From: Pristiophorus japonicus
Taxonomy: Eukaryota
Reading direction: 5' to 3'
DNA: 64,000 bases
Assembly (NCBI RefSeq): GCF_044704955.1
Contig: NC_091995.1
Coordinates: forward strand, 86,614,001 to 86,678,000
The position numbers were made by a program, and so were the translations under genes. Below the pieces are notes generated by a model. That model did not search any database and had not been told where the DNA came from. It saw only the letters and a list, made by a program, of their open reading frames with translations. Shown one piece after another: positions 533 to 59,609 of the stretch (position 1 is the stretch's first letter; the number at the start of each line of letters is the position of its first letter).

Positions 533-2925
533 GTTTACATGGGTCATAATGTACCAGCGGCTTGTTCGAGCAAAGCAGATTGGTGGCTTTCTCGAAAGCT
601 CTGTCTTGCAATACGCCCCACACCCAGTTGTTGCCTTTTCTCAATAGCATATGCAGTGGTTTAAGTAAGGTGCTCAATTTAGGTCGGAAGTTACCAAAGT
701 AGTTGAGTAGACACAGGAACGAACGCAGCTCTGTCACGTTCTACGGCTTGGGTGCATTCTTGATGGCTTTGGTTTTCACGTCAGTAGGTCAGATGCCATC
801 AGCGGCGATTTTCCTCCCGAGGAATTCGACCTCCGGTACCATGAAGACGCACTTCGAGCATTTAAGTCTGAGTCCCACTCTGTCCAAATGCAGTAGAACC
901 TCTTCCAGGTTGTTCAGATGTTCCTTGGAGTCACGATCGGTGATCAGAATGTCATCTTGGAACATGACGGTTCTGGGAACGGACTTCAGTAGACTTTCCA
1001 TATTCCTCTGGAATATTGCTGCAGCCGAGCGAATTCCAAACGGGCACCTGTGGTAAATAAACAGTCCCTTGTGCAACGTCTCGACCAACTCCTGCGTCAT
1101 ATAGGCCAATGTCATGTCCAGTTTTATGAACAACTTCCCTCCGGCTAGCGTCGCAAACAAGTCATCAGCTTTTGGTAACTGGTACTGATCTTGTTTTGAA
1201 ACCCTGTTGATCGTAGCCTTGTAGTCTCCACAGACTCTGACATGTGCCATCACTTTTCAGCACAGGAACAATGGGGCTGGCCCATTCATTAAACTCGACT
1301 GGTGATATGATCCCTTCACGCTGGAGTCTGTCCAGTTCAATTTCGACCTTCTCCCTCATCATATACGGCACTGCCCGAGCTTTATGATGGACGGGTCTTG
1401 CATCTGAATCCACGTGGATCTGCACCATGGCTCCCGTGAAGTTGCCGATACCCGGTTCGAACAGCGAGGGGAACTTGCTCAATACTTGGACACATGTATC
1501 TTCCTCTGACGACAACGCCTTTATGTCGTTCCAGTCGCATCTGATTTTCTCCAACCAGCTCCTGCTGAGCAGTGTTGGGACATTGCCTGGAACAATCCAC
1601 AGCGGTATCTCGTGAACCGCACCGTTATACGACACATTACTTTGTGCACTGCCAATCACCTTTATCAGTTCTTTGGTGTACGTGCGCAGCTTGGCATTAA
1701 CAGGGCTCAGCCTGGGCCTCGCAGTCTTAGTATCTCACAGCTTATTAAATGCCCTCTCGCCCCTGTGTCCAGTTCCATCGATACCCGTATCCCGTTAAAC
1801 TTCACATTAATCAAAATTGGTTTACTCTTGGTTATGAAAGAGTACAGTCCATACACTTCCTCCTCTGGCACCTCGGATTGCGTATCCGGATCCGGGCTAG
1901 TCTGACTCTCATCCTCCACGTGGTGTGTCGCAGCACGCTTGCTCATCTGCGGACACTTGCGCTGGAGATGCCCCACTCTCAGGCAGCCTTTGCAACTATA
2001 TTGCTTAAATCGGCACTGCTGGTGCCGGTGATTTCCCCCACAACCCCAACACGGAGAAGTCGGATACATTCCCGCTGGCGGACTTTGGGCAGCCACAGGT
2101 TTCGCGAACGCAGCCGGATAGGCCCTGCCATGTGCCGCTCTGCCGAACACCGAATCAATCGCAGTTACAGTACTTGCCGAGGTTCGGTTCTTCACCGATA
2201 TTTGCTTTAAACTCCTGTCTGTCGTCATACATGGTTGAGTGATCTGGATGGTCCTTTTTAAATCCAACTCTTCCACTGCCAGAAGTTTGTGCAGAATCAC
2301 CTCGTGGTTGATACCGATAACAAAGAAGCATATCTGCCAACACTGTCCCGAACTGGCATGGTCCCGCTAGACCTCTCAGGTCGGCAACGAATTCTGGCCC
2401 TCCGATCGAAGGTGTGTATAAAACCTATATCTCGAGATGATGATGCCGTTGTCTGGCTTGAGGTGCTCCCGTACTAAGTACACAACTCCTCGTACGTTTT
2501 CTCTGTTGGATCACTAGGCATAAGTAGATTCTTTATCAGACTGTAGATCTTTGAACCGCACACAGTGAGGAACACGGCCCCGCGCCGATCTTCATCGTCA
2601 ACCCCCTTCATTTTGTTGGCCACGAAGTACTGGTTCAATCGGCTCACAAAGTCTGCCCAATCTTCTCCCTCCACGAATCGCTCTAAAAATTCAATTGTGC
2701 TCATTTTGCAAACAAAGGTTCTTGTATTCTCGTCGCCAAATGTACAAACTGAGTACTGTTTAACTGAACAAGGTACAACCTTGTTTCTGCTTTATTTAGA
2801 CCCAAAGTGTCTGACTCACAAAATGGCTGGCCTTTTATACCAGAGCAGCACCATGTGCGTGCTGCTCAATGGCCTCCGACAATGACACCATCTGGTGGCC
2901 AGAAGCAGCATGTACATACATGAGA
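533..2925 (-). mobile_element. Outer Gypsy (Mag-like) LTR retrotransposon: degenerate gag-protease-RT with 5' LTR (2741-~2925) and tRNA-Ser-type PBS
   Basis: ORF fragments give gag MSTIEFLERF..., two Zn knuckles (CWGCGGNH..C, CKGCLRVGHLQRKC), protease MELDTGA, RT WASPIVPV / PFGI / FQDDIL / FLG and ELRSFL..LNYF. PBS TGGCGACGAG directly follows LTR end at 2741. Multiple frameshifts. Confidence 0.92.
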
Positions 2926-9290: not shown

Positions 9291-9939
9291 TGTATGCACC
9301 TGTGAGTATGCTCACAGGTTTGTGGAGCTGTTGTTGTCGGAGGGGAGTGGGCAGGTCTGAAGGCCTTCTCGTAGGACTGCTCCTGGGCATGGCCAATGTG
9401 GCCATGAGCCGGTCCAGGTGGCGGGCGGTCGAGGGGGCTGTTTAGCCCGACTGCCTGCCTCTTTTCCGCGGTTACATCCGAGCCAGGGTGTCCCTGGAGA
9501 TGGAGCACGCGGTGTCCAATGGTACGCTCGCGGCCTTCCGCGAGAGGTGGACACCAGCGGGACTGGAGTGTATCATCACCCCCGGCAACCAAATTTTAAT
9601 TTAATTTAAGTTTAATGTCTAAAGTTTAATTTGTTTAATGTGTCGGTTTTAGTGCCCCTTTAACGAGGGGGCATTTGATTATTGTTTCAATTGAAATAGT
9701 TGTAGAGCTGTTGAGTTGGGAGTGGCTTAGCCAGTCATGTGATGTTCACAACACTCAATAAAACCGCAGCCAGTTGGGTTCGGGGGATCCACGATGAGGC
9801 AGGTGGTTGTAAGCCTGGTGGATGAACTGGTAATGTGTAGTGTGATTGTTAAACCTTTTGCTAATAAACCAACTAGTTTTTAATTGCAATGTGTTGCTGT
9901 GAATTCAGAAACAAAGAACCCGTGAAACAAATACATTAC
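9291..9939 (+). mobile_element. Solo LTR (TGTAATGTAT...ATACATTACA family) split by a Tx1 insertion
   Basis: 9291-9333 plus 9700-9939 align to the intact minus-strand copy at 25745-26019; AATAAA present; ends ATACATTACA. Confidence 0.8.
9334..9699 (+). mobile_element. Tx1-clade non-LTR retrotransposon 3' fragment with 14-bp TSD
   Basis: Encodes LLVGLLLGMA.VA...DCLPLFRGYIRARVSLEMEHAVS.GTLAAFRERW, resembling the Tx1 ORF2 C-terminus. Flanks TTGTGGAGCTGTTG (9320-9333) and TTGTAGAGCTGTTG (9700-9713). Confidence 0.75.
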
Positions 9940-10502
9940 AATTACCATCATCCCTTTTGATTCTCTAATCTCTCCTGCCTTCCACCCTATCACAGACCTT
10001 CGCTTTTGTTCTTTCCTCCCCTCCCTGCTTTCCCGGCCCCGACACCTGCTTAAAAACCTGTTACGTCAGTAACAATTTTCCAGTTCTGACGAATGCTCGA
10101 CCTAAACCGTTAGAGCTCTGTTTCTCTCTCCACGGAAGCTGCCTGACCCACTGCGAGTTTCCAGCATTCCCTGTTTGCAATGTCAGATTCCCAACATCCC
10201 GCAGCGTTTGGGCATTTGCAGCCAAGTTTTTGTTTCCGATGTAGACCCCCTGCATTAGAACCGAAAGAAATTTCTTCTGGACAATGAAGAGCCTTTAAGT
10301 AGGATGGGAATGAAGGGGAAGTCAGGGAGGAAATCAAAACAAACAAGAGAGGAAACATGGGAAGAATGTGCAGACGTGCCAACTCTGGCCGACCTATCGC
10401 GAGGGAGGCGAATTTCGAAGTAAAATTAATCCTCACTCGTGATCTCGCGATGGAAGTTGTAGGGGATAGCGGAAAGGCTTCTCTTTCCACGAGCGGACCC
10501 CC

Positions 10503-25744: not shown

Positions 25745-26019
25745 TGTAATGTATCTGCTTCTTGGGTTCTTTGCTTAAGAATTCATAGCAACACATTGCT
25801 ATTAAGACTAATTGCTTTATTAGCATACGGTTTAACAATCACACTACACATTACCAGTTCATCCACCAGGCTCACAACCATCTGCCTCATTGTGGATCCC
25901 CCAAACCCAACTGGCTGGGGTTTTATTGAGTCGTGTGAACATCACTTGACTGGCTAAGCCACTCACAATGCAGCAGCTCAACCAACCTGTGAGCATGCTC
26001 GCAGGGTGCATACATTACA
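25745..26019 (-). mobile_element. Intact solo LTR, 275 bp
   Basis: 10-bp terminal inverted repeat TGTAATGTAT...ATACATTACA; same family as 9291-9939, 30068-30304 and 31360-31410. Confidence 0.85.
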
Positions 26020-27512: not shown

Positions 27513-28230
27513 TAAGAACATAAGAAATAGGAACAGGAGTAGGCCATATGGCCCCTCGAGCCTGCTCCGCCATTCAATAAGATCATGGCTGATCTGATCA
27601 TGAACTCAGCTCCACTTCCCTGCCCGCACCCCATAACCTCTTATCTCTTTATCGTTTAAGAAACTGTCTATTTCTTTCTTAAATTTATTCAATGTCCCAG
27701 CTTCCACAGCTCTCTGAGGCAACAAATTTCACAGATTTACAACCCTCTGAGAGAAGAAATTTCTCCTCATCTCTGTTTTAAGATCATGCCCTCTAGTTCT
27801 AGTCTCTCCCATCAGTGGAAACATTCTCTCTGCATCCACCTTGTCAAGCCCCTCATAATCTTATACATTTTGATAAGATCACCTCTCATTCTTCTGAATT
27901 CAAATGAGTAGAGGCCCAACCTACTCAACCTTTCCTCATAAGTCAACCCCTGCATCTCCAGAATCAACCTAGTGAAACTTCTCTGAACTGCCTCCAATGC
28001 AAGTCCTTCCTTAAATACGGAGACCAAAACTGCACGCAGTATTCCAGGTGTGGCCTCACCAATACCCTGTATAACTGTAGCAAGACTTCCCTGCTTTTAT
28101 ACTCCTTTGCAATAAAAGCCAAGATTCCATTGGCCTTCCTGATCACTTGCTGTACCTGCATACTATCCTTTTGTGTTTCATGCACCAGGACCCCCAGGTC
28201 CCGCTGTACTGCAGCACTTTGCAATCTTTC
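27513..28230 (-). mobile_element. 5'-truncated CR1
   Basis: RDLGVLVH...LVRPHLEYCVQFWSPYL; same subfamily as 5848-6563 and 63380-64000. Confidence 0.9.
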
Positions 28231-29306
28231 TCTGGTCATTGTGCGCAGATTGGCTGATGCGTTTCCTACATTACAACAGTAACTACACCTCAAAACTACG
28301 TCATTGGCTGTAAAGCGCTGAGAGACAATCCGAAGTTGTGAAAGGTGCTCGTCTTTTTATACAAAAGCAAAATACTGCGGATGCTGGAATCTCGATTAAA
28401 AACAGAAACTGCTGGAAATTGCCCATCCCTAATTTGGCAGTTGGTCATTATCCCTCCATTCACACCCTATCTTGACTAATGCTTTTCTAATTCCTGACAT
28501 TCCCATTTCAATTCGGCCCATCATCCCTTTTGTCTCTCTAATCTCTCCTGCCTTCCACCCTATCACAGACCTTCCCTTTTGTTCTTTCTTCCCCTCCCCC
28601 TTTCAGTACTTGTTAAGAATCTGTTCATCTCGAACACTTCAGTTCTGACGAAGGGTCATCGACCCGAAATGTTAACTCTGTTTCCTCTCCACACATGGTG
28701 CTGGGATTTCCAGTATTTTCCGACTTTTTTATGATTGCCTACTGGGGCATCATGTCAGCTGGAGCTCACCGAGGAAGCTTGCAACTGGCCACAATGGCAC
28801 ATCTTTGGCATAAGAACAAATTAACCCTAGGCTGCTTTTTCATACCACGTTTCTATTTTTCCTCCCAAAGTGGATAACTTCACCTTTCTCCACATTATAT
28901 TCCAGTTGCCTTGTACTTGCCCACTCACTTAGCCTGTCTATATCCCCTTGAAGCCTCTTTGCATCCTCCTCACAACTTACATTCCCACCGAGCTTTGTAT
29001 CATGAGCAAACTTGGATATATTACATTTGGTCCCCTCATCCAAATCATTGATACCCTGGATGTGTGTGTTATTTTATCCCTCCCTCACACTGAGGTGAAG
29101 AGGCCAGTTGTAGGGCCCTTGCTACATCCTTGACTGGGCTAAGCTAACTCCGCAAAGTCTGTGCATCCCAGGATCTTTCTGGTTTGCACAAAACAGTGCA
29201 TTTACCAGCCGAGCCACTGGGGTTTGTGCGGTAATGTCTTGGAGCAGCTTTCCCCCGACCCCAAAACACCACCTGTTTAATCAGCAGTTTGGTTCTTATT
29301 CAACAG

Positions 29307-29470
29307 GAAGGAGAATGATAAGATCGAGCTGCTTGTCGGCTGCCTGGCAGAACTTTCCGAAGAGGAGGAATCCCTCCTGCGCCCAGGGGAGAATGACTTC
29401 AGCGTGATGTACTCCACCCGCAAAAAATGTGCCCAGCTCTGGCTGGGGCCTGCTTCCTTCATCAACCACG
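29307..29470 (+). CDS. KMT5C: KMT5C coding exon 4 (SET domain, 164 nt)
   Basis: [54 protein letters not shown]; CAG acceptor, G|GTATGT donor. Confidence 0.96.
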
Positions 29471-30067
29471 GTATGTGGATAACTGGCCTTTTACAGGGGA
29501 AGGGAAATCGGAGGGGAGGTACTTTTTGTCAAAAGTATTCCGCCAATTTTATTTGATATAATTAAACACTTCGAGAAATCTTCTGACTTTTTTTTTTGAG
29601 ATATAAATGATCTTGGGGAGATGTGCCAGGTCTGGGTGCCTCTGCTTTGCTCACTCTGTGACATGTCACTGACAAGGACCGAGATGAGGAGAAACTTCTT
29701 CACCCAGAGAGTGGTGAACCTGTGGAATTCTCTACCACAGAAAGTTGTTGAGGCCAATTCACTAAATATATTCAAAAAGGAGTTGGATGTAGTCCTTACT
29801 ACTAGGGGGATCAAGGGGTATGGCGAGAAAGCAGGAATGGGGTACTGAAGTTGCATGTTCAGCCATGAACTCATTGAATGGTGGTGCAGGCTAGAAGGGC
29901 CGAATGGCCTACTCCTGCACCTATTTTCTATGTTTCTATGTTTCTTTAGTGCTCTGAAGTGGCTCCACTGGTGCAATGTATCCATTGAACATTGCACGCT
30001 TGGGTTTGAATCCCATCTTCGTCATTATTGTGTTAAACTTTGACGCTTCTGGTTGTTTACTGAAAGA

Positions 30068-30304
30068 GTTGTAGAGCTGTCGCATTGCGAGTGGCTTAGC
30101 CAGTCACGTGATGTTCACAAGACTCAATAAAACCCCAGCCAGTTGGGTCTAGGTCATCCACGATGAGGTATGCAGTTGTGAACCCAGTGGATGAACTGGT
30201 AATGTGTAGTGTGATTGTTCAACCTTTGTTAATAAACTAACTAGTTCTTAATAGCAATATGTTGTTATGAATGCTTAATACATTCATGAAGCAAATACAT
30301 TACA
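30068..30304 (+). mobile_element. 3' part of the same LTR family, beginning at the Tx1 target site
   Basis: GTTGTAGAGCTGTCG...ATACATTACA; aligns to 9699-9939. Confidence 0.8.
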
Positions 30305-30403
30305 ATTGGAAACAGTGAATCCACGGCTTTTGTCCAAGCCCCGGGGCCTAACCCAGAGCTAGCTGACCCCGAAATGCCTCTATAGCAGCTAGTGGCCCAG
30401 CTT

Positions 30404-30762: not shown

Positions 30763-31634
30763 ATTACAGCACAAAGCCTCAAGGTGATCTTGGTCCTATT
30801 TGACCACGGAGCCATGATCTGTCTTTGGATTTTCTTTGCTTATAGCTACCATTTACACCACAGGCATCTAACTAGGATGTAGCCATGATATAAAAAGAAG
30901 ATAATGTGCGTATAGAAATACCAGTGGAAACACAAGTCCTATCTTTGCTGGCCTGTTGTCCTGATTTCAGGACGGTAAAGTTTGCGCCCGGGAACAGTTT
31001 GCGCCTCAGTCATCAAAATTGGGCAGCTGGGCCCCGAGTGTGGGGCGGAGCGCTAAGGGAGGCGTTACACACCTCTCTCGGGGCACTAAGCTGGCTGAGC
31101 ATGGGAAAATCCCGAGCTAAACAGCCGGCCTTGGAGCACTCTAAGTGAGGCCTGGAAGAAAACAAAAAACCTGAAAAACCCACCAAAAACATTCCCAATA
31201 AATAACTCACGCCACCACAACATAAAACAGTTTAAAGAAAAAGAAGAAAAAAAAATCACACTTGCCTGAGGTCGACATTACTTACCTCACTGTGGCCGCG
31301 ACAGCTCAGAACGCCTGCTTCCACAGACGGTCCCAGCAGGGCGCTCTACAGAGAGCTAATGTGTTGCTATGAATTCGTAGGCAAAGAACCCATGAAGCAA
31401 ATACATTACAGAAACTTCAGCAAAGCCCATTGGAAGTCTCGGTAAACCACATCATCGGGCTTCCCGCAGTCCACTTGGGATGTAACTTCCTCAAAGAAGT
31501 CAAGGAGGTTTGGTCAGGCACAATTGAGCCTTTCTGAATCCCTATTGGTTGCTGTTTACTAGGTCATTATTGTGCAGATTATCCTCACATATCCTTTACT
31601 CCTAATAATCAATACTACTGTACACTGTACTGTA

Positions 31635-41157: not shown

Positions 41158-41303
41158 TGCACATCATGATTGGACACATGGGTGAGGGACCAGCAAGATT
41201 AATGCCTTCAGGGCAAAAGAAAACTGGCTTTGGGACCTCACCTTGTTGGGACTCCCTAATGCTTGCTAAATCTTACGGCTATTTTTTTTTTTTTTAACTT
41301 CAG

Positions 41304-42874
41304 CTTCAACCGCAAGGCTCTCCTTAACTTTGAGGAGGAGCAGACGAGGGAAATGGAGACGGCGGACCCCGCGGAGCGCCCGCTCAAAGTCGGCGTCCGC
41401 GCTTTCGTCGGCGGTGCTGCAGCCGCAGAACTTCCAGGACGGCAGTGGGAAGGAGGTGGCGAGCGACCGAGGCGCGACGGAGCATCTGCGGAATGGCAGC
41501 AGGACTGCCTGTGGCGGGGGGGAGCCTGGGCCGCAAAAGCGGACGGGGGAAAGACTTCACCGCGGCTTCGGGTACACCTCGACGTTGCAGCTCCAGCCCA
41601 CGGCGAGGAGAGTTGACCCCGGCGCGCCCGAGACTTTCCTGGGGCCAGACGGCGTGGCCCTGAAGCACTTGCGGGTGGACTTGTACGACTGCGCCGATCT
41701 CGCCGGGACGCTGACCCATCTGAACGAGTCGGCCACACGGAAACTTGGGCGGTATTTGTGGGACAAACCGGAGGTAGACTCGGACCCCGCTGCCTCTCGG
41801 CGGCCAGAAGAGATGACCAACCCGAAAGCTCCTGCAGGCACCAGTCGAGTCCCAGCCTGCAAGCCCAACCCGAGAAAGTCGTCGAAGGCAACTTGGAAGA
41901 ATTTGATTGGTCTCGGTTTACCGGCTGAAGCGAACGCTCCTTCGCCGCACCAAGCTCCTTCGCCCAAACCGCAGAGCACAAATGTAGCCCGCCCTCCAGG
42001 CCAACGTCCTCTTGATTCGCAGACGGGCAGCGAGAGGGTGTCTGGCAGCACGGTGACGAGGAAGAGGCGGCGAAGGAGGCGGAAGAGGGCGCTGAAAAAG
42101 AGGGCGAATCAAAGGCGGAAGAGCTCGCCAAGCCCGGAGACGTTGCCGAGGAGAGCGTTCGGTTTGACCCATTTCGTGAAGATAGATTTGAGCAAGGACG
42201 CGGTCCTGGTAACGAGCGTCAAGAACGAAGCACCGCGCTCTGCGCAGAGCAACGCCAGCCCTCAGCAAAACTGCCGTCGGGGCGCGGCGGACGAGAGCGC
42301 GGCGGAAATGCGCGACGTCCGCGTGGTGCTGGAGGACATTTCGAAGCTCTGCGAGTCGGCCACGCGCACGTGGTACGTGCGGAGGAGATTGGCCGCCAGG
42401 CTGAGCGTGGGAGGAGAGGGAGGGAGCGGCTGGCTGGATCCCAAAATGGGGTCGCGGGTGGCGGGCGGCGGAGCGCTGAGGACTGTGCGCTGCGCTCGGC
42501 CGTGCGCCCCGGGGAACCAGCGGGCGGCGGGCGCAGCGGGACTGGGGCCCGGCGGCGGGCGCGCGCCGACGGCGGCCGCAGCAGGACTGGCGGACGGCCC
42601 GAGGCACGGCGCTGCCCAGTGCAAGCGGGCCCGCCGTTTCCCCGGCTCCGCGCAGGACACCAGGGCGCGCGGCGCGGCGGCGCCGGGTCCCCCGCGGGGC
42701 GGACCGTGCGGCGAGGGCGTGCTGGCCCACAGCTGCTTTGTCTCTGCGGTGGAGGATGGCAAAAGGCCTGCGGCTTTCACTCCGTTCGCTCGGTCCAAAC
42801 GCCTGCGTCTGGTGGTCAGCAACGGCTCCATCGACTTCGACATCTCCTCTTCGACCAGCGAAGATTCCGTCTGA
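41304..42874 (+). CDS. KMT5C: KMT5C terminal coding exon (1571 nt, basic and low-complexity)
   Basis: Acceptor T-run..AACTTCAG; phase 1 joins in frame to ORF 41330-42874; ends KRLRLVVSNGSIDFDI, matching the KMT5C C-terminal KRLRLVVSHGSIDLD motif. Total CDS 2460 nt = 819 aa. Confidence 0.9.
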
Positions 42875-57115: not shown

Positions 57116-57257
57116 TCGGTTACATTGGTTTGTCCACTAAGATGCTGCGAGGTGGGGGTGCTATTTTTCCCCTTTAGTCCACCCGCTCCTCTGTGTAGTG
57201 CGTGTATTGCTGCAATTTAATAACGGCCTCTCTCTCTTTCTGCCTCTGTCCCCTCAG

Positions 57258-57441
57258 CGCAGACAGTGGCTGCAGGAAGCATTGTCGGACGCATTTAACG
57301 GACAGCTGGATGAAGTTAAACAGATCAAAGATTGTCTGCAAATTCTGGACACATCCGACGACGACACAAGCGAGGAAGGACGGAGGTGGAATGCACTCGA
57401 TACTGTGTCGGACTTGTGCGAAAACCTCGACAATGCAAGAG
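57258..57441 (+). CDS. HSPBP1: HSPBP1 coding exon 2 (184 nt)
   Basis: RRQWLQEALSDAF...DLCENLDNAR; CAG acceptor, G|GTACGT donor. Confidence 0.95.
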
Positions 57442-58133
57442 GTACGTAATGTTATCCGTGAGGCTTGGGAGTCTTTTTCCCATTTTTATTCAGACTTTAA
57501 AAAAAAGACTTTCATTTATACAGCGCTTTTCACAACAGTGGGACATCCCAGAGCGCTTTACAGCCAGTAAGAGCATAAGAAATAGGAGCAGGAGTCGGGC
57601 ATTTGGCCCCTCGAGCCTGCGCCGCCATTCAATAAGATCATGGCCTCAGCTCCACTTCTCTGCCTGTTCCCCATAACCCTTCACTCCTTTATTGTTCCAA
57701 AATCTGTCTATCTCCACTTTGAATATATTCAATGGCCCAGCCTCCACAGCTCTCTGGGGCAGAGAATTCCAAAGATTCACGACCCTCTGAGAAGAAATTC
57801 CATCTCATTTCCATTTTAAATGTTCTTAAACTATACCCCTAGTTCTAGATTCCCCCATGAGGGGAAACATCCTCTCTGCATCTACCTTGTCGAGCCCCCT
57901 CAGAATCTTTATGTTTCAATAAGATCACCTCTCTTTCTTCTAAACTCCAATGAATACAGGCCCAACCTGCTCAACCTTTCTTCATAAGACAGTGAAATAC
58001 TTTTGCAGTGTAGTCACTGTTGTAATGTTGGATACGATGGGGAGTGGGAACCATGGCTGATATTCTCCACTAGCTAGCCCCGGGGAACTATGGTCACTGA
58101 GTCGGCAGATTTATTAACCTCCCCTTTGCTTAG

Positions 58134-58358
58134 ATTTCTGTAAGCTGGCCGGCATGCAGCTGGTGGTGACAAACTTCCTGGAATGCCCGGACCCCGAGCT
58201 GCGATGGCGAACGGCACACCTCATCGGCACGTGCAGCCAGAATAACCCCTTCGTCCAGGAGCACGTGCTGAGCCTGGGCGCCATGCCCAAACTGCTGGAC
58301 CTCCTGAACAGCGACAACAGCGAAATGGTTCGAATCAAGGCTCTCTTTGCTGTATCGT
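58134..58358 (+). CDS. HSPBP1: HSPBP1 coding exon 3 (225 nt, ARM repeats)
   Basis: DFCKLAGMQL...LRWRTAHLIGTCSQNNPFVQE...VRIKALFAVS; T|GTAAGT donor. Confidence 0.96.
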
Positions 58359-58480
58359 GTAAGTGCCTCGCCTTGCGTGATCATATCGGGGGGGGAGGGG
58401 GGAGGGAGGAAGAGAGATATTTGAGAGAGACATTAGAAGGCGGGCAAAAGTTTCCTCTGTTAGCCCCTGTATTGAAAGAG

Positions 58481-58924
58481 AGAACTTGCATTTATATAGC
58501 GCCTTTCACAACTTCAGGACGTCCCAGAGTGCCTTACAGCCAATGAAGTACTTTTTGAGTGTAGTCACTGTTGTAATGTGGGAAACCCGGCAGCCAATTT
58601 GCGCACAGCAAGCTCCCACAAACAGCAATGTGATAATGACCCAGATAATCTGTTTTTTGTGATGTTGATTGAGGCGTAAATTTTGGCCCCAGGACACCGG
58701 GTATAGCTCAACTGCTCCTCTTCGAAATGGGATCTTTTACATCCATTTGAGAGGGCAGCTTAACGTCTCATCCGAACGACGGCACTTCTGACAGTGCGCC
58801 ACTCCCTCAGCACTGCACTGGGAGTGTCGGCCTAGATTTTTGTGCTCAAGTCCCTGGAGTGGGGCTTAAACTGACAACCTTCTGACTCAGAGACGAGTGT
58901 GCTACCCGCTGAGCCACAGCTGAC
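58481..58924 (-). mobile_element. Full-length DeuSINE
   Basis: Head, core and tail on the minus strand. Confidence 0.9.
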
Positions 58925-59093
58925 TATAGTCACATTGCCGCCTAATACTGGCACAGGTCTGAGCGACTGCTGCACTGGCTTGTATATGCTGTTACGACAG
59001 GAGCAGGTGTTTGTAATGCTGCGCAACGTTTGAAAGTTGACGAGATGTTAATTTAACTCTGTTTATTCCCCCCCCCCCCCCCCACCCTTTCAG

Positions 59094-59249
59094 GCTTGGT
59101 GCGCGAGCAGGAGGCTGGCTTGTTGGAGTTTGTCGAGCACGACGGTTTCTCGGTGTTGATGAGGGCCATGCAGAGCGGCATTGAGAAGCTGAAGGTGAAA
59201 GCTGCCTTTCTGCTGCAGAACCTGCTCATCAGCAGCCCTGAGCACAAAG
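59094..59249 (+). CDS. HSPBP1: HSPBP1 coding exon 4 (156 nt)
   Basis: CLVREQEAGLLEFVEHDGFSVLMRAMQSGIEKLKVKAAFLLQNLLISSPEHK. Confidence 0.96.
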
Positions 59250-59609
59250 GTCAGAATTTGGCTTAATAATGGAGGGGTGGGAGGGGGGCTGGGGGGAATC
59301 GGAGCGGGTGCGCGTGCGTGTCTTCCTTGCCCAAACTTAATGTGCTGCGATTGGGTTTGTAATTTTTTTTTTTTTTCCTTCTCCCACTTTTTTCTCCTCT
59401 GCTCTCCTGAAGGTGCTGACTCGTGCTCGGATACAGTTCCACACAGGCCCGTTGTCCCCAGTAAGTATTGGCAGGCTATTCAATCACAGGAGGCCTCGTA
59501 GCTCAGCACGATTCTGCCCTTATTGGACAGCCATACACACGCGCGCTCTTTTCCAGCAAGAGTCACTATAATAAATACCAGAAACGCCCAGATCGTTTTT
59601 CTTTTTTTA

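Follow-up and report, generated by a model that had tools for sequence, protein, structure and literature searches.

Within the Tx1 clade of LINEs, the Tx1-Mar/Keno group takes in the families Tx1-8_Crp and Tx1-4_AMi. Crocodilian Tx1 families preferring LTR retrotransposons, namely Tx1-8_Crp, Tx1-4_AMi and Tx1-Mar/SINEU, have been published, and in the part of that paper drawn on here the criterion for target specificity is that more than 20% of the flanks are of one repeat type, independently 5'-truncated copies included (Kojima 2015, PMC4494074). According to the passages on R1 elements used here, R1 transcripts carry downstream target sequence that may anneal to the nicked strand (PMC2718515, PMC7265360) and R1 arrays are extended by further insertions into the 5' duplication (PMC2718515); PMC4640811, again used in part, provides the general setting only. 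How site-specific LINEs change their targets is an open question, and the usual families are too diverged for comparison. Site-specific vertebrate LINEs are also of interest as tools for gene insertion. The family described here comprises close relatives with four targets, intact copies, a 5' polarity marker and many off-target insertions, and the roles of protein and RNA therefore become directly testable.

The window, that is, the whole 64,000-nucleotide stretch of the Pristiophorus japonicus genome analysed here, contains a Tx1 copy inside an LTR. A sequence-only reading had placed this arrangement at 9291..9939, with a Tx1-like ORF2 3' fragment at 9334-9699 and a 14-bp target-site duplication. 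The fragment, the duplication and the start of the span are borne out, and the end moves to 9940, where the LTR stops. The features are as follows:

9291..9333, + strand: left part of a Gypsy-type solo LTR (LTR positions 6-49; 86% to the intact LTR; first 5 bp diverged or lost)
9297..9302, + strand: upstream signal CACCTG, 18 bp ahead of the TGTGGAGC core of the duplication; half of an LTR palindrome
9320..9333, + strand: target-site duplication, 5' copy, TTGTGGAGCTGTTG
9334..9699, + strand: 5'-truncated Tx1-clade LINE, family A, older tail type (ORF2 end and 3' UTR, without poly(A))
9652..9674, + strand: GC-rich inverted repeat of the 3' UTR (predicted hairpin), recurring in related copies
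9700..9713, + strand: target-site duplication, 3' copy, TTGTAGAGCTGTTG
9700..9940, + strand: right part of the LTR (LTR positions 38-275)
9820-9830, + strand: empty second Tx1 target, site C, GGATGAACTGG, inside the right LTR part

The ORF2 3' end is in frame at 9335-9604 and spans about the 89 last codons, with a single internal stop and the terminal stop at 9602-9604. The copy is 87% identical to a full-length copy (L118), 85-86% identical to intact family B, and 84-87% identical to the 3' end of an intact sister copy (L136). An inverted repeat of the LTR, ACCTGTGAG-N4-CTCACAGGT, lies at 9298-9319 and takes up most of the 18 bp that separate the target from the upstream signal.

The target repeat is a solo LTR of 275 bp with TGT...ACA ends. 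Of 30 LTR copies, 22 are flanked by a 5-bp duplication that matches in 4 or 5 positions, a primer-binding-site-like TGGCG adjoins 80 copies (LTR+TGGCG junctions), and both an RT frame (E=4e-10) and a gag-like frame (E=0.017, below the cutoff) lie downstream of the LTR in L122 and L123. Because of the 5-bp duplications, the primer-binding site and the gag/RT interior, a DNA transposon with 10-bp inverted ends was ruled out as the target. The domain order RT-RNase H-integrase was looked at in the same two loci, whose interiors are interrupted or deleted, and we take the element to be of the Gypsy type, partly from the likeness of the gag and RT frames. The intact LTR of the window, which the sequence-only reading had described as holding the site once, does so as a diverged variant:

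25745..26019, - strand: uninterrupted LTR copy, diverged target site, no 5-bp duplication left here

An LTR 3' fragment (positions 223-275) also lies at 31358-31410 of the window, and a decayed Gypsy-like gag-pol at 703-2900 (- strand) has an LTR end and a primer-binding site that differ from those of the target LTR. Among LTRs followed by AAAATGGCG (L091-L102), about 6-7 of 10 have a Tx1 tail at the site. The window also carries exons of host type at 29300-29480, 41270-42874 and 57200-59300, one of them about 0.5 kb from the LTR copy at 29972-30304; they resemble exons of a Suv4-20-like SET-domain histone methyltransferase and of an HSPBP1-like nucleotide-exchange factor of Hsp70.

The 5.9-Gb genome was searched with the Tx1 3' end, which gave 3,876 candidates, of which 40 were scored and 30 fetched. 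By hand count, 21 of the 29 other fetched top loci are on target, 18 running straight into the LTR right half and 3 via tandem units, and 8 are off target. A tail-anchored pattern gave 41 distinct places once 8 duplicate rows had been dropped. Hand counting assigned 24 of these directly to the LTR half, 5 to the full motif with other sequence behind it and 12 to partial or off-target sequence; one of the 12 was later found in the LTR, so that 30 of 41 are at the site and copies with unrelated 3' flanks are a minority. For a single tail type, 1,534 exact tail-site junctions were counted against 0 for the reversed control, far above chance, and the LTR breakpoints cluster at GTTGTAGAGCTG. The copies have a target-site duplication (13-16 bp overall), a fixed 3' end and variable 5' truncation, as in target-primed reverse transcription. 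There are 71 full-length 5' junctions at the LTR (the family-A junction form being taken from L186), and whole elements lie between both LTR halves in L198, L200, L206 and L209. Of 3,779 LTR left halves with the exact site, 1,552 continue as empty LTR; among the first 20 non-empty ones sampled, 16 hold Tx1 and have 15 distinct 5' breaks between them, and the other 4 are empty sites changed by mutation. From these counts, occupancy of the exact sites is estimated at near 47%, and the striking of about half of one element's LTRs is a clear example of parasitism between mobile elements. With the LTR half at 24 and the site at 30 of the 41 places, and with 15 breaks in 16 copies, the family also lies above the published threshold for target specificity. 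We are thus close to certain that it targets this single LTR site in a sequence-specific manner, as had been suggested from the window.

TTGG variants of the LTR site were considered as insertion-resistant, which the counts do not support: among the first 100 sites, 4 of 7 are empty, vs 34 of 93 for TTTG, and 2 of the other 3 are occupied. At their 5' junctions, the full-length family-A copies in the LTR at L195, L196, L206, L209 and L212 read GGTGTGTAGAGC, vs GGTTTGTAGAGC in the LTR, hinting that the 5' end of the RNA bears its own copy of the target.

A third LTR copy had been described as beginning at the same position, at 30068, behind a similar tail. Both points stand, and the sequence upstream is a piece resembling tRNA-Ser(GCT) in place of a Tx1 body:

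29967-29971 and 30305-30309: 5-bp duplication of the third LTR copy, ACTGG / ATTGG
29972..29981, + strand: left stub of the third LTR copy, TGCAATGTAT; about 27 bp of LTR deleted at the 5' junction
29980..30058, + strand: retrocopied 3' half of a tRNA-Ser(GCT)-like gene plus genomic trailer to the T-run; aligns to L109 and L110
30059..30068, + strand: 10-nt Tx1-type tail, ACTGAAAGAG, linking the tRNA piece to the target site
30069..30304, + strand: right part of the third LTR copy, beginning at the target site

A second Tx1 body at 30068 was therefore rejected, the insert being the tRNA-like 3' half with its trailer. Nor is this copy a duplication of the junction at 9699, since it has its own 5-bp LTR duplication and a different insert and hence represents an independent event. 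Rfam made no call for the tRNA fragment of the window, and ARAGORN called 1 of 15 related loci. When the tRNA piece was searched, 15 of 16 matches were fetched; three others are joined to a Tx1 tail, two of them at the target (L104 and L109) and one off target (L111), and the remaining 11 resemble tRNA loci without the tail. At L173, two full 5S rRNA copies lie at the target. The junctions suggest that a template switch is the likely cause of this cargo, in which the reverse transcriptase would jump from the end of the Tx1 RNA onto Pol III RNAs, a pre-tRNA at 30068 and 5S rRNA elsewhere. A switch from LINE RNA to Pol III RNA is also the origin of the U6/LINE-1 chimeric retrocopies. The present chimeras resemble these in the kind of switch and differ in a Tx1 part that may measure just 10 nt, in having pre-tRNA or 5S rRNA as cargo and in landing at a specific target. 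The tRNA-Ser(GCT)-like sequence captured at 29980-30025 has a 3' end complementary to the primer-binding site of the LTR element (TGGCGACRAGRATGGGA-like; L091-L102); this match may be a coincidence, because the captured piece has a genomic trailer and not CCA.

A protein search returned many intact 1306-aa ORF2 frames, often 7.2 kb apart, and the LTR site is absent from all 20 fetched intact-ORF2 copies. The intact sister copy L136 has a 702-aa ORF1 and a 1306-aa stop-to-stop ORF2 with PF03372, PF00078 and PF13966; an ORF1 together with an ORF2 carrying an APE endonuclease, a reverse transcriptase and a C-terminal zinc finger places the family in the Tx1 clade. Partial ORF2 matches were found to Heterodontus and Hemitrygon proteins (69-70%). 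Relatives using four targets, the LTR site above (site A) and three others, are about 80-95% identical in DNA and include intact copies. Family B has the target TTCATGCACAAGGA, antisense in a CR1-type LINE; its tail pattern occurs at 791 places, and of the first 100, 81 are on the B target and 0 on the LTR site. Family D has the target TCTGTGGAC, at the equivalent codons of another CR1 family (569 junctions, control 1), and site C is TGAACTGG, at LTR position ~159 (280 junctions, control 10). The B/D flanks translated antisense read ...KFADDTK...DLGVLVHE / DLGVPVHR...YCVQFWSP, motifs that we take to be those of CR1. An empty family-B target, TTCATGCACCAGGAC, lies in a CR1-type copy at position 28177 of the window.

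The order in which these targets were adopted was approached from two sides. A quick tree that included four outgroups unites the 11 CR1-targeting rows in a single clade (SH-aLRT 91), in which D is basal; branches with SH-aLRT of only 83-89 nest this clade among the LTR-targeting copies. The tree left out 16 of 20 young B rows and all copies with more than 35% gaps, and its outgroups were Tx1-like only, with no L1. End branches become shorter from A to D and older B, and then to young B. The 5' ends give a polarity separate from the tree. Family A starts directly after its own duplication, some D copies open with GGTGGAGCTGTTG, which is left over from the LTR target, and continue into an A-type 5' UTR, and B copies start with CCAAT and a decayed relic, so that, judged from these 5' ends, the LTR target appears as a relic in CR1-targeting copies. 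The path would run from LTR site A to CR1 site D and on to CR1 site B, with LTR site C as a side branch.

Many copies stand in tandem arrays. After removal of 7 overlapping loci, the 5' break in LTR arrays is common (within 12 nt) to 38 of 54 adjacent units, vs 58 of 2,211 pairs from different loci. In the young B arrays, the first 40 nt are identical between neighbours in 15 of 17 cases, with a mean of 0.29 differences vs 4.31 between arrays, and the likeness fades by ~1 kb. Over the last 200 nt, differences are as large within arrays (7.9 and 7.6) as between them (6.4 and 9.0; 14 arrays). As the 5' ends are shared and the 3' ends are not, tandem duplication was ruled out as the source of the young B arrays, and a newcomer likely takes its 5' end from the resident copy: a copy entering the duplication at its neighbour's 5' end would finish by pairing with or copying that neighbour. 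In old A arrays, divergence is 10-12% within arrays and 12-16% in the control, which is indecisive alone, and unit lengths differ. L281:3424-7364 holds a run of seven truncated Tx1 units with one common 5' break. Near the Tx1 array of L068, an open frame at 3-608 (oriented) resembles a retroviral envelope transmembrane region.

To see what sets the target, sequences around the insertion points were compared. CACCTG lies 18 bp ahead of the duplication core at sites A, B and D, and CAGGTG lies at 17 bp for site C. Among 38 off-target or partial loci, 26 yielded a 5' junction, 3 of which were variants of the canonical target, leaving 23 true off-targets; the 12 loci without a junction were left out. 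An exact CANNTG within 1 nt of the position is present in 9 of the 23, vs a background of 1.4-1.5% (p=1e-7 with a 4% null). By family, it is present in 7 of 11 B off-targets and in 2 of 12 A off-targets (p=0.08, 4% null), and two of the 12 junction-less loci, both B, were later recovered with one CACCTG and one 5-of-6 match. The first bases at A off-targets are TTG in 9 of 11 and TTC in 0, and those at B off-targets are TTC in 13 of 17 and TTG in 0, a difference with p=3e-7 as computed ahead of three reassignments. At the TTGG-variant LTR sites of L277 and L276, the 3' junction is slipped by one base or the G is replaced. The GT ahead of the 3' duplication is derived from the element, because other bases stand there in empty sites.

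From these comparisons, we consider it probable that site choice has two parts. The ORF2 protein would bind the CANNTG signal ~18 bp upstream of the nick, and the 3' end of the RNA would pair with the first 4-5 target bases; insertion would proceed by target-primed reverse transcription from a Tx1 RNA without poly(A) that may read through into the flank of the donor copy. RNA pairing alone was dropped as a targeting model on the upstream-motif test. Several points count against the two-part mechanism: the upstream signal, strong in B, is weak in A; none of the off-target copies seen carries canonical target over a long stretch at its 3' junction alone; and the switch is also tracked by 8 ORF1 columns and by 8 ORF2 columns that lie outside the endonuclease, changes that could alter how the protein reads the nick.

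The strongest alternative, which we hold to be unlikely, is that specificity lies in the protein only, ORF2p recognising the bases at the nick as well as the motif upstream, with few substitutions retuning it at each switch. The candidates are C67S, I163M and I201V in the endonuclease, or D1008N, E1063G, V1102A and S1124R in the C-terminal part. Residue I201 lies within an SR(I/V)DR motif, and the L1 counterpart of this motif is near the DNA. Between 21 LTR-targeting and 27 CR1-targeting copies, diagnostic columns number 11 of 1,299 in ORF2 and 8 of 697 in ORF1 (the 'B2' group of this comparison contained the two D copies), and the 11 ORF2 columns, which track the CR1-targeting clade, fit a retuned protein, as does the view, in the part of Kojima 2015 (PMC4494074) used here, that target choice is set mainly by the endonuclease. 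However, only 3 of the 11 are in the endonuclease and none is exclusive, each change also occurring in LTR-targeting copies (S in 4 of 19, M in 2 of 19, V in 6 of 20), and the VRPGVGW loop is common to most copies of both groups. Retuning would moreover be required at each of three switches between targets that are alike in only 2-6 first bases.

Considerably less probable is the recruitment of the Tx1 particle by a host E-box-binding factor sitting on CACCTG, CAGCTG, CAGGTG or CAGATG, with RNA pairing setting the exact register. The off-target motif allows either of the central pairs and both orientations, which suits such a factor. Sites of bHLH and ZEB/Snail proteins tolerate variation of both kinds. 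The fixed spacing of 17-19 bp is, however, equally explained by the element's own protein.

Finally, an explanation without targeting, in which the LTR half travels by 3' transduction or in which duplication or the Gypsy element itself multiplied Tx1 and LTR as one composite, draws on the 3' flanks being mostly one and the same LTR half and on an AATAAA ~55 nt downstream in the LTR. It is extremely improbable, and transduction and hitchhiking are rejected, because both LTR halves flank inserts with many 5' breakpoints, off-target copies have duplications of their own (matched length 10-16 bp) and no LTR sequence, and one site receives copies with differing tail subtypes as well as unrelated cargo (tRNA, 5S).

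Returning to the two-part mechanism, an RNA reading into the donor's flank would mean that a donor sitting in a new repeat with the upstream signal hands on a new target, with no need for a new endonuclease. That the target is heritable via RNA in this way, a fixed, protein-read CANNTG anchor being combined with a 4-5-base code copied from the flank, and that the family so moved from the LTR to two CR1 sites with its endonuclease essentially unchanged, is a tentative proposal to which we give slightly less than even chances. If it is true, former targets would accumulate as a stack at the 5' end, and a change of the RNA flank alone could suffice to redirect intact copies.

The best named full-length match to ORF2 is Tx1L of Xenopus laevis (YTX2_XENLA), with 49% identity over 99% of ORF2. 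In ORF2, domain order and target type, the two compare as follows: both have the order APE-RT-zinc finger and take another mobile element as target (Tx1D for Tx1L), whereas the target here is an LTR, or CR1 LINEs in the sister families, and not a DNA transposon. Like R1 of Drosophila and Bombyx as described in the passages used (PMC2718515, PMC7265360), the present family is of the APE type, makes a 14-bp duplication, probably forms arrays through insertion into the 5' duplication and is proposed to have a read-through RNA that may anneal; R1, in contrast, holds to its 28S rDNA site across species, whereas the target here would have changed serially. Neighbours with common 5' truncation points, an upstream hexamer and a serial change of target are not mentioned in those R1 passages. 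In the literature covered, which does not extend to Repbase Reports and subscription journals, no report was found of this Tx1 family, its target switching, CR1 as a Tx1 target, or shared 5' breaks. The crocodilian families, compared by their description in the part of the source used, are old (85-87% to consensus), whereas the family here has young intact copies and four resolved targets. LTR-preferring Tx1 elements are therefore already known, and what is added here is four targets, a near-constant endonuclease, a common upstream signal, relic targets and copied 5' ends.
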